Positions 15,288-16,241 of a DNA stretch of 64,000 nucleotides are shown here, one piece after another. Both the position numbers and the translations under genes were made by a program. The notes beneath the pieces were generated by a model. The model had not been told where the DNA came from. It ran no database searches and was given only the letters and a program-made list of their open reading frames with translations. Every line of letters starts with the position of its first letter. Within the stretch, counting starts at the first letter, position 1. Source of the stretch: Shigella phage TB004; sequence record MW822011, one strand, 5' to 3'.

Positions 15288-15360
15288 TGGGAATTAGCCA
15301 AGTTGGTAAGGCACTGGATTTTGATTCCAGGATGCAAAGGTTCGAGTCCTTTATTCCCAG
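15288..15360 (+). tRNA. tRNA-Gln (anticodon TTG)
   Basis: Hand-folded cloverleaf, GGTTCGAGTCC T-arm; no encoded CCA. Confidence 0.8.
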
Positions 15361-15361
15361 C

Positions 15362-15448
15362 GCGAGAATGGTCAAATTGGTAAAGGCACAGCACTTAAAA
15401 TGCTGCGGAATGATTTCCTTGTGGGTTCGAGTCCCACTTCTCGCACCA
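15362..15448 (+). tRNA. tRNA-Leu (anticodon TAA), long variable arm
   Basis: Acceptor GCGAGAA/TTCTCGC, anticodon loop CTTAAAA, CCA encoded. Confidence 0.8.
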
Positions 15449-15453
15449 AATTT

Positions 15454-15527
15454 GCGGATATCGTATAATGGCATTACCTCAGACTTCCAATCTGATGATG
15501 TGAGTTCGATTCTCATTATCCGCTCCA
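15454..15527 (+). tRNA. tRNA-Gly (anticodon TCC)
   Basis: Acceptor GCGGATA/TATCCGC, anticodon loop CTTCCAA. Confidence 0.8.
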
Positions 15528-15537
15528 ATTTAATTTA

Positions 15538-15611
15538 CTCCGTGTAGCTCAGTTTGGTAGAGCGTCTGCTTTGGGAGCAGAATGTCGCAGGTTCAAATCC
15601 TGCCGCGGAGA
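15538..15611 (+). tRNA. tRNA-Pro (anticodon TGG)
   Basis: D-stem GCTC/GAGC, anticodon loop TTTGGGA, GGTTCAAATCC T-arm. Confidence 0.8.
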
Positions 15612-15613
15612 CT

Positions 15614-15703
15614 GGAGGCGTGGCAGAGTGGTTTAATGCACCGGTCTTGAAAACCGGCAGTCGCTCCGGCGACTCATAGGTTCAAATCCTATCGCCTCCG
15701 CCA
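15614..15703 (+). tRNA. tRNA-Ser (anticodon TGA), class II
   Basis: Long variable arm, anticodon loop CTTGAAA, CCA encoded. Confidence 0.8.
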
Positions 15704-15708
15704 GTTTT

Positions 15709-15784
15709 GCTGATTTAGCTCAGTAGGTAGAGCAACTCACTTGTAATGAGAAGGTCGGCGGTTCGATTCCGTCAATCAGCACCA
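15709..15784 (+). tRNA. tRNA-Thr (anticodon TGT)
   Basis: Anticodon loop CTTGTAA, GGTTCGATTCC T-arm, CCA encoded. Confidence 0.8.
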
Positions 15785-15785
15785 A

Positions 15786-15860
15786 GGCCCTGTAGCTGGA
15801 AGGTTCAAGCAAGCGACTCATAATCGCCAGATGGTGGTTCAATTCCACCCAGGGCCACCA
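15786..15860 (+). tRNA. tRNA-Ile/Met-type (anticodon CAT; the T4 homologue is the AUA-reading tRNA-Ile)
   Basis: Acceptor GGCCCTG/CAGGGCC, anticodon loop CTCATAA. Confidence 0.7.
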
Positions 15861-15873
15861 AATTAAGAATTAA

Positions 15874-15960
15874 GGGGAGTTATCCCGTAGAGGTAGCGGT
15901 GTGGACTGTAAATCCATTGTCATTGCGACTCGGGTGGTTCGACTCCATCACTCCCCACCA
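15874..15960 (+). tRNA. tRNA-Tyr (anticodon GTA), class II; not in the T4 set
   Basis: Anticodon loop CTGTAAA, long variable arm resembling E. coli tRNA-Tyr, GGTTCGACTCC T-arm; D-arm atypical. Confidence 0.6.
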
Positions 15961-15964
15961 ATTT

Positions 15965-16038
15965 GGATGTGTAGCTCAGTGGTAGAGCAGTTGACTGTTA
16001 ATCAATTGGTCCATGGTTCGAATCCATGCATGTCCGCC
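15965..16038 (+). tRNA. tRNA-Asn (anticodon GTT); not in the T4 set
   Basis: D-stem GCTC/GAGC, anticodon loop CTGTTAA, T-stem CATGG/CCATG. Confidence 0.7.
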
Positions 16039-16164
16039 AAATTTGTGACAACTGTCACATTAATATCTACTTGACGCGATTATAGGGTTGAACTGATCAC
16101 TCTTCTCTTAATTTCGTGTGAAGACATCTTGATTGTTGGAGTAGGTATTAATGTGAACTAATTA

Positions 16165-16241
16165 CGGGGTGTAACTCAATTGTATAGAGTAGCGGTCCTC
16201 TAAACCGCAGGTTAAAGGTTAGAATCCTTTCACCCTGGCCA
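16165..16241 (+). tRNA. tRNA-Arg (anticodon TCT)
   Basis: Anticodon stem GCGGT/ACCGC, loop CCTCTAA, CCA encoded. Confidence 0.7.

Follow-up and report, generated by a model that had tools for sequence, protein, structure and literature searches.

A probable T2/RB-type tRNA operon in Shigella phage TB004, with an expanded connector in its tRNA-Tyr and a candidate dual role in codon supply and defence buffering

The tRNA gene cluster

The tRNA gene cluster of Shigella phage TB004 was analyzed in a 64,000-nucleotide stretch of DNA from sequence record MW822011 (referred to here as the window; all positions are counted from its first letter). ARAGORN detected 10 tRNA genes, all on the plus strand between 15288 and 16241, and none other in the whole 64-kb window. 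Their order is Gln-Leu-Gly-Pro-Ser-Thr-CAU-Tyr-Asn-Arg (anticodons ttg, taa, tcc, tgg, tga, tgt, cat, gta, gtt and tct). The Rfam model RF00005, applied at its gathering cut-off of 29 bits, likewise gave 10 matches, nine of them at 59.3-72.9 bits and one, tRNA-Tyr, marginal.

The array opens with tRNA-Gln (UUG; 15288..15361; 67.4 bits), which ends in CCCAGC with an incomplete CCA and is directly abutted by the class II tRNA-Leu (UAA; 15362..15448; 59.3 bits). These are followed by tRNA-Gly (UCC; 15454..15527; 63.3 bits), tRNA-Pro (UGG; 15538..15612; 70.2 bits), the class II tRNA-Ser (UGA; 15614..15703; 62.6 bits) and tRNA-Thr (UGU; 15709..15784; 72.9 bits). Next comes a tRNA with anticodon CAU (15786..15860; 59.9 bits), which ARAGORN reports as Met(cat) and which is best read as tRNA-Ile2, and then the class II tRNA-Tyr (GUA; A73; 15874..15960; 30.2 bits), for which family covariation provides additional support. 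The last two genes are tRNA-Asn (GUU; 15965..16039; 72.6 bits) and, after a 125-nt spacer (16040-16164), a C33 allele of tRNA-Arg (UCU; G73; 16165..16241; 59.3 bits). Among the ten, only Gln and Pro do not encode the full CCA.

An earlier note on this DNA, made from the sequence by itself, had listed the same ten genes, and their order, coordinates and anticodons were reproduced exactly by ARAGORN. The two candidates that the note had considered open to rejection by covariance models were both accepted, Asn solidly and Tyr marginally. The ten tRNA genes are confirmed as genuine.

Relation to the tRNA operons of T-even phages

Taken as a whole, it is very likely that this locus is the tRNA/stable-RNA operon of T-even phages (Tequatrovirus) in its T2/RB-type configuration, with a mosaic make-up and a dual role for its tRNAs. 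A 1.15-kb region containing the cluster shares 98.1% identity with Escherichia phage 236Ecol005PP (Tequatrovirus), a phage whose record lists the same ten tRNAs, and 884 phage records match this region. The ten genes lie in the T2L/RB1/RB3-type order between trna.2 and rnaD/rnaC, without segB. Phages T2L, RB1 and RB3 also lack segB and carry tRNA-Met(CAU), Tyr, Asn and Arg instead (Brok-Volchanskaya et al., 2008; PMC2330249). What the earlier note had read as an expanded T4 set is thus nothing new: the T2L/RB1/RB3-type arrangement was published in 2008 (PMC2330249), and the ten-gene arrangement is common and annotated in hundreds of phage genomes. Our main finding re-discovers the standard T2/RB-type operon, which a GenBank genome of 98% identity already has in its annotation. 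Any novelty would lie in by-products of the analysis, namely a 2-3-nt insertion in the tRNA-Tyr family, a structured RNA that precedes tRNA-His in other phages, and the C33 tRNA-Arg with its nuclease-like open reading frame (ORF).

Phage T4 (NC_000866) has 8 tRNAs in the order Gln-Leu-Gly-Pro-Ser-Thr-Ile-segB-Arg-rnaD-rnaC. The eight anticodons besides those of Tyr and Asn are the T4 set, as had been noted from the sequence, and T4 and the window also share the flanking genes, rnaD, rnaC and the terminator. The tRNA-Leu (100% identical), Gly (99%) and Thr (96%) genes are close to those of T4, with Leu, Gly, Ser and Thr spanning 96-100%; Gln (89%, with a different anticodon stem) and Pro (84%) differ mainly by paired stem changes. 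In contrast, the CAU tRNA and tRNA-Arg are only 63% and 64% identical to their T4 counterparts and represent non-orthologous alleles. The window has Tyr, Asn and the spacer where T4 has segB, and its Ser and Ile/CAU genes encode CCA whereas those of T4 do not. By blastn, homology to T4 runs at 93% identity over 14705-15805, breaks off within the CAU tRNA after its first 20 nt, and is found again from 16785. A simple insertion of Tyr and Asn between the T4 Ile and Arg genes, as first envisaged, does not agree with this pattern, in which T4 homology is broken throughout 15805-16785, T4 has segB in that place, and the genes on either side of the supposed insertion are different alleles.

The window belongs to the same genus as T2L, RB1, RB3 and T2 and shares with them the position after trna.2 and before rnaD/rnaC, the absence of segB, and the CAU-Tyr-Asn-Arg block. 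In the T2 genome (AP018813) there are 9 tRNAs, Gln-Leu-Gly-Pro-Ser-[ORF]-Met-Tyr-Asn-Arg, with an ORF in place of Thr. The tRNA-Tyr genes of T2 and the window differ at 1 nt. However, the T2 tRNA-Asn is another allele, the preferred SegB target, and T2 has a different Arg allele directly after Asn, where the window adds the 125-nt spacer with a structured RNA and a block consisting of Arg(C33) and a T5orf172 ORF. Phage T6 has the order Gln-Leu-Gly-Thr-Met-Tyr-segB-Arg, and its tRNA-Tyr is 98% identical to that of the window (2 nt different, with an identical variable arm). The window Tyr has no adjoining segB, and amplification of Tyr driven by SegB is therefore unavailable to it. The tRNA-Tyr of T5-like phages belongs to the same phage family of tRNA genes at ~84% identity. 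Yersinia phage fPS-65 (LR215724, 11 tRNAs) is 96% identical over 14718-16155, from Gln through Asn and the spacer element; it then continues with tRNA-His, a different Arg and a different small ORF, whereas the window has Arg(C33) and the T5orf172 ORF.

In the window, break-points of homology fall at tRNA-gene ends (15805, 16155/16164 and 16785), and the number of tRNAs in relatives is 2, 7, 8, 9, 10 or 11. This range bears out the earlier view of the cluster as modular. SegB is known to cleave tRNA genes at their 3' ends, and in co-infections of T4 and T2L it swaps ~1,250 bp of T2L (Met, Tyr, Asn and Arg) for the T4 block (PMC2330249). From these sequence comparisons, the cluster appears to be an allelic mosaic in which phages have exchanged modules at the edges of tRNA genes, T4 being the variant that carries segB. 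T4 should not be taken as the ancestral reference for this locus, being on this reading the variant reshaped by segB.

An expanded connector in tRNA-Tyr

The tRNA-Tyr gene reached its RF00005 score, just over the cut-off, only with the acceptor stem slid 2 nt inward, and in an E-value search the tRNA-Sec model scored it higher (34.4 bits), under the Sec cut-off of 47. ARAGORN misses 4 of 14 members of the Tyr family, and in GenBank some records have the gene as tRNA-Val or tRNA-OTHER, or without any annotation. These observations would fit a degenerate or false Tyr candidate in a true cluster of nine tRNAs, an account that is largely refuted by the evidence that follows and is very improbable.

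By blastn, 1,389 phage records contain a homologue of tRNA-Tyr, and in 508 of these the identity is ≥95%. We aligned 13 homologues taken from GenBank phage records and an E. coli plasmid, the sources being Tequatrovirus, Moonvirus, Jiaodavirus, Certrevirus, Phapecoctavirus, Tequintavirus, Felixounavirus, Avunavirus, an Enterococcus Schiekvirus and the plasmid. A class II cloverleaf was paired in 99.4% of cells of this alignment, with double-sided changes in 16 of 24 pairs, including all three pairs of the variable-arm stem. None of 500 shuffles matched this, and registers slid along the alignment paired 44-55% of cells. In the gene itself the 7-bp acceptor stem is perfect, A73 is present, CCA is encoded, the T loop is canonical, the variable arm is of class II, and the anticodon GUA sits in a 7-nt loop that has U33 and A37. 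Judged by the established identity elements of E. coli tyrosyl-tRNA synthetase (TyrRS), these features are those expected of a bacterial-type class II tRNA-Tyr. A tRNA-Sec-like identity was rejected on the sub-threshold Sec match and the covariation of the class II Tyr cloverleaf. Moreover, the T6 gene has been seen on a northern blot and rescues infection (Chihara et al., 2026; PMC13096335), and rescue from retron-Eco7 was lost when the tRNA-Tyr of phage SP15 was altered in its anticodon or stems (Azam et al., 2024; PMC11555353).

The D-arm of this tRNA had been described as atypical. The oddity is real, but it resides elsewhere: the D-arm is normal, and 2-3 extra nucleotides lie after position 9 throughout the family. 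In the canonical register chosen by ARAGORN (U10-G25, C11-G24, C12xC23, C13-G22), only 59.6% of D-stem cells are paired and one pair never forms, and this register was rejected. Shifting the stem by 2 nt gives CCGU/GCGG around a 7-nt loop, AGAGGUA, with A14, G18G19 and A21 in their usual places; all cells (100%) are then paired, and a T5-like phage contributes a single compensatory change (CUGU/GCAG). The connector between the acceptor and D stems usually has 2 nt in tRNAs (positions 8 and 9). In the register that pairs across all homologues, the Tyr connector instead has 4 nt (UAUC in the window), made up of an invariant UA and two freely varying bases, and in three phages (CR3, Merlin and Schickermooser) it has 5 nt. 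The weak covariance score, the family members missed by ARAGORN and the mixed GenBank labels (Tyr, Val, OTHER or none) can all be attributed to this expanded linker, which causes covariance models and ARAGORN to miss or mislabel the gene. Pairing of the extra nucleotides with position 26 or with the variable arm was considered and set aside, as the 13 sequences, on inspection, did not covary consistently there. No description of the expansion was found in the papers on phage tRNA-Tyr that were searched.

A phage-type tRNA-Tyr with 94% identity is present on ~110-kb plasmids in 269 of 5,426 complete E. coli genomes. The same set of genomes gave no chromosomal blastn match to the Tyr gene at E ≤ 1, and an origin in the host chromosome was set aside on this basis. 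The plasmid copies and the spread over many phage genera mark tRNA-Tyr as what appears to be a widely exchanged accessory gene. A protein-anchored scan of IMG/VR for relatives yielded only 7 loci; a pattern scan of IMG/VR for the Tyr anticodon and T arms returned 120 phage tRNA-Tyr genes, mostly unrelated, and added no close family members.

On plasmid pEC881_2 (L144, 2421-2667) the tRNA-Tyr is flanked by tRNA-Asn and tRNA-Thr, and there are 272 other plasmid matches. Enterococcus phage PEf771, a phage of a Gram-positive host, has a family member (L141, 41-122) that is 79% identical, carries an altered T loop (GGUGCAACUCC), does not encode CCA, adjoins a group I intron endonuclease gene and is undetected by ARAGORN.

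Identity of the CAU tRNA and selection on tRNA-Asn

The CAU tRNA is labelled Met by ARAGORN and in most annotations, and also in the T2L paper (PMC2330249). Its closest E. coli sequences, found in 5,413 of the 5,426 genomes at 81.6% full-length identity, are tRNA-Ile genes in RefSeq. One of these was read: its anticodon is CAT, and its 17-nt anticodon arm matches that of the window gene exactly. The acceptor stem, GGCCCUG/CAGGGCC, provides C4-G69 and C5-G68, which are determinants for the lysidine synthetase TilS. A lysidine-type tRNA-Ile2 is, from these sequence features, the better call, and the Ile(CAT) assignment made in the earlier note is borne out by the kinship with E. coli tRNA-Ile(CAT). 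An elongator or initiator Met identity was set aside on this similarity, which falls short of proof.

The tRNA-Asn of the window differs from the allele of T2 and fPS-65 by five double compensatory changes, at 29-41 and 31-39 in the anticodon stem and at 49-65, 50-64 and 51-63 in the T stem. Such paired differences between alleles are direct evidence, at the sequence level, of selection on the structure of the tRNA. The T2/fPS-65 allele is the one that holds the preferred SegB site (PMC2330249).

Proposed roles in codon supply and defence buffering

For codon usage, 17,000 codons from 79 window ORFs were set against 14,329 from a 50-kb sample of E. coli K-12, with ORFs called in the same way in both. 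The nine most enriched phage codons were AGA, ATA, ACT, ACA, TCA, AAT, TAT, TCT and GGA, and by standard wobble rules all nine can be read by the encoded tRNA set. TAT was enriched 2.66-fold and AAT 2.89-fold relative to the E. coli sample; Tyr (1.76-fold) and Asn (1.66-fold) were the second and third most enriched amino acids, after Lys. Adaptation to codon usage, one of two drivers suggested when the cluster was first noted, fits this over-use of TAT and AAT, and modular gain, the other, fits as well. The suggestion had overlooked an anti-defence role of tRNA-Tyr.

By analogy with T4 biology, the array would be transcribed as polycistronic precursors from upstream promoters, host RNase P together with 3' exonucleases would release the tRNAs, and Gln and Pro would be completed by the CCA-adding enzyme of the host. 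The mature tRNAs could then top up the host pool for codons over-used by the AT-rich phage, TAT and AAT among them. Tyr and Asn would act as extra copies of single-isoacceptor tRNAs in higher demand, adding dose rather than a missing isoacceptor.

A second role is suggested by recent work on the same tRNA-Tyr, shown between 2024 and 2026 to buffer phages against both Septu and retron-Eco7, which makes the locus topical. Septu (PtuAB) cleaves tRNA-Tyr, and over-expression of the T6 tRNA-Tyr rescues T6 from it; deleting or amplifying the T6 gene alters sensitivity to Septu. T4, lacking a tRNA-Tyr, is unable to escape, and T2 resists (PMC13096335). A tRNA-Tyr of the T5 family neutralises retron-Eco7 in a dose-dependent manner that needs its decoding function (PMC11555353). 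The window Tyr is the same gene as the characterised T6 tRNA-Tyr, and as in T6 it may raise the dose of tRNA-Tyr against Septu cleavage. We favour a dual role, in which the array would contribute to codon supply and tRNA-Tyr would in addition buffer against defence.

It is unlikely that codon supply is the whole explanation, with the AT-rich phage proteome needing more Tyr and Asn decoding and defence being irrelevant. The enrichment of TAT and AAT, the ranking of Tyr and Asn among the amino acids and the wobble coverage of all nine top codons do argue for it. Supply alone, however, does not accommodate the shift in Septu sensitivity when the T6 tRNA-Tyr is deleted or amplified, or the failure of T4 to escape (PMC13096335). 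It also leaves aside that tRNA-His occupies the same block in relatives although CAT (1.01-fold) and His (0.73-fold) are not enriched, and that near-identical tRNA-Tyr genes occur in at least 8 unrelated phage genera and on ~110-kb E. coli plasmids, in the manner of a mobile accessory gene.

Evasion of defence could alternatively be the main driver, with Tyr, Asn and, in relatives, His replacing tRNAs destroyed by nucleases; this is possible, though rather doubtful. The general hypothesis has been laid out (PMC10264068), and the cleavage of tRNA-Tyr by Septu and retron-Eco7 with rescue by phage tRNA-Tyr (PMC13096335, PMC11555353) is in line with it. Tyr, Asn and His all have GUN anticodons, as do the tRNAs attacked by anticodon nucleases of the colicin E5 type. 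Colicin E5 itself cleaves exactly the Tyr, His, Asn and Asp tRNAs (PMC1635277); that the three phage tRNAs correspond to three of its four substrates is suggestive. Colicin E5, however, is a bacteriocin and not a demonstrated anti-phage system, and no experimental link connects a phage tRNA-Asn to any defence system. The anticodon loops of the window Tyr (CUGUAAA) and Asn (CUGUUAA) show, on direct reading against the host loops, no obvious change suggestive of nuclease resistance, and codon demand gives a strong signal for Tyr and Asn by itself.

Several points weigh against the dual-role, mosaic reading that we prefer. Presence and absence of the block do not by themselves decide polarity, that is, whether T4 lost it or this lineage gained it. 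The match to codon usage is a correlation only, and Lys is the most enriched amino acid (2.2-fold), yet no tRNA-Lys is encoded. A consensus scan of the region found no excess of sigma-70-like promoters. What these tRNAs do in this phage is predicted from its sequence; for Asn, only the supply argument is backed by data, and a phage tRNA-Asn is not known to counter any defence system. Finally, the T6 tRNA-Tyr is itself cleaved by Septu, and the protection it gives is dose-dependent rather than absolute (PMC13096335).

A structured RNA in the Asn-Arg spacer

The spacer between tRNA-Asn and tRNA-Arg contains a structured RNA element of ~100 nt (16054..16157, plus strand), recognized by its fold, conservation and covariation. 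Its single-sequence fold has z = -3.8. The 355 phage records in which the element is kept represent at least five genera, and with few exceptions tRNA-His follows directly on its 3' side. Six sequences were aligned (two Tequatrovirus, a Karamvirus, a Gelderlandvirus, a Klebsiella phage and a Vequintavirinae phage), and the RNAalifold consensus consists of a long closing stem and three hairpins. In this structure 95.9% of cells are paired and 10 pairs have changed on both sides; none of 500 shuffles matched it, and slid controls paired 36-51% of cells. The element has no match in Rfam. A consensus scan found no promoter or terminator inside the spacer, and the reading of the spacer as such a site was set aside.

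In the window the element is orphaned, as tRNA-His is absent. Homology to the 11-tRNA phages stops at 16155, 3 nt into the expected start of tRNA-His, and the closing stem of the element takes in the first three bases (GUG) of the phage tRNA-His. The tRNA-His of fPS-65 (L002, 4001-4076) has an apparent U at -1 opposite C73 and not an encoded G-1. A perfect CRP-consensus palindrome, TGTGA-caactg-TCACA, lies at 16044-16059, just after tRNA-Asn, with its right half within the closing stem; it is common to fPS-65 and half-conserved in Karamvirus and Gelderlandvirus.

A tRNA-Arg allele linked to a candidate homing endonuclease

The tRNA-Arg(UCU) gene departs from a canonical elongator tRNA. It has C33 (loop CCUCUAA), where U33 is near-universal in tRNAs, a D loop (AAUUGUAUA) without the GG of G18G19, and a T loop of UUAGAAU, so that the U33 and the G18G19/C56 elbow expected of an elongator are wanting, yet it scores well with RF00005. 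The C33 allele is rare, with ~17 phage records at ≥90% identity. All four of its stems are compensated relative to sister alleles (RB32/RB69-type and TH54), which have U33. An exact-match scan with the 17-mer of the C33 anticodon arm returned one unrelated phage tRNA-Arg (L150) and one match outside tRNA genes, a yield too small to interpret.

The C33 tRNA-Arg is always followed by an ORF with a MUG113/T5orf172 (GIY-YIG-like) domain. In the window this ORF (16263..16817, plus strand, 184 aa) sits between tRNA-Arg and rnaD, with its last codons and stop inside rnaD. It matches Pfam PF13455 (4.5e-09) and PF10544 (4e-06) and PHROG 5032 (1.6e-59), with weaker matches to endonuclease and homing-endonuclease PHROGs, and has no similarity to SegB. 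The block of Arg and ORF is 93% identical in the Gaprivervirus VR7, where the flanks are 68-80% identical; TH54, of the same genus as VR7, lacks the ORF and has a U33 Arg allele. Homologues of the ORF lie directly beside tRNA-Arg(TCT) in a Jiaodavirus and a T5-like phage (KpV477 and Kenya-K20), and further homologues occur within the tRNA regions of T5. C33 is not a general trait of Arg genes next to T5orf172 ORFs, as the Arg genes of KpV477 and Kenya-K20 have U33. With its presence/absence polymorphism and an identity higher than that of its flanks, as expected of a homing endonuclease, the 184-aa ORF looks like a candidate homing endonuclease that targets tRNA genes.

Just before rnaD, the hexamer ATACCA (16785-16790) equals the last 6 nt of a T4-type tRNA-Arg and is probably a scar left where the Arg and ORF block replaced the T4-type Arg gene. 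We tentatively suggest that the stretch from Asn to rnaD holds two undescribed things, the structured RNA and a SegB-independent homing cassette linked to an Arg(UCU) allele, although the odds are against this combined proposal. If it is true, C33 and the re-compensated Arg stems would serve as immunity substitutions, shielding the copy within the cassette and leaving the tRNA usable.

Homing also bears on why Tyr and Asn are present. In a selfish hitch-hiking account, the tRNA content mainly reflects the last block driven in by a homing endonuclease, SegB in T4 and T6 and possibly the T5orf172 ORF here, and not selection acting on each tRNA. The cutting of tRNA 3' ends by SegB with replacement of ~1250 bp of T2L in co-infection (PMC2330249), the break-points at tRNA-gene ends and the high identity of the Arg and ORF block in Gaprivervirus all agree with this. 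Hitch-hiking explains how modules move, however, and not why the tRNAs stay intact, and the compensatory stem changes in Tyr, Asn, Gln, Pro and Arg indicate purifying selection on tRNA function. As the reason for which Tyr and Asn are kept it appears improbable, and retention for codon supply together with defence buffering by Tyr remains our favoured reading.

A tblastn search with T4 SegB found no orthologue in the tRNA region or the remainder of the window. It turned up only a distant GIY-YIG Seg-like ORF at 35043-35528 (27% identity, E = 8.6e-10), ~19 kb downstream of the cluster, which was not accepted as SegB.

Flanking genes and the downstream end of the operon

The cluster is flanked upstream by T4 genes 1, 57A, 57B and trna.4/.3/.2 and downstream by e.8-e.5. 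The upstream ORF matches PHROG 2023 over the full length, and at the DNA level it aligns with the block of T4 in which trna.2 lies. Downstream, the rnaD/rnaC region is 90.7% identical to T4 over 16785-17130 by blastn. It contains an rnaD-like stable RNA gene (T4 'species 2'; 16792..16911, plus strand), identified by homology to T4 and the T4 annotation, and an rnaC-like gene (T4 'species 1'; 16918..17056, plus strand) in the homology block shared with T4.

A probable intrinsic terminator was read from the sequence at 17098..17127 on the plus strand (AGCCCCUUCC-GAAA-GGUUGGGGCU, followed by U6). It was missed by the consensus scan owing to an internal U-U mismatch in its stem, and it probably closes the tRNA/stable-RNA operon. 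The rnaC-like homologue has a tRNA-like 3' domain, and ARAGORN calls one copy of it (L008, 5580-5673) 'tRNA-Stop(tta)'.

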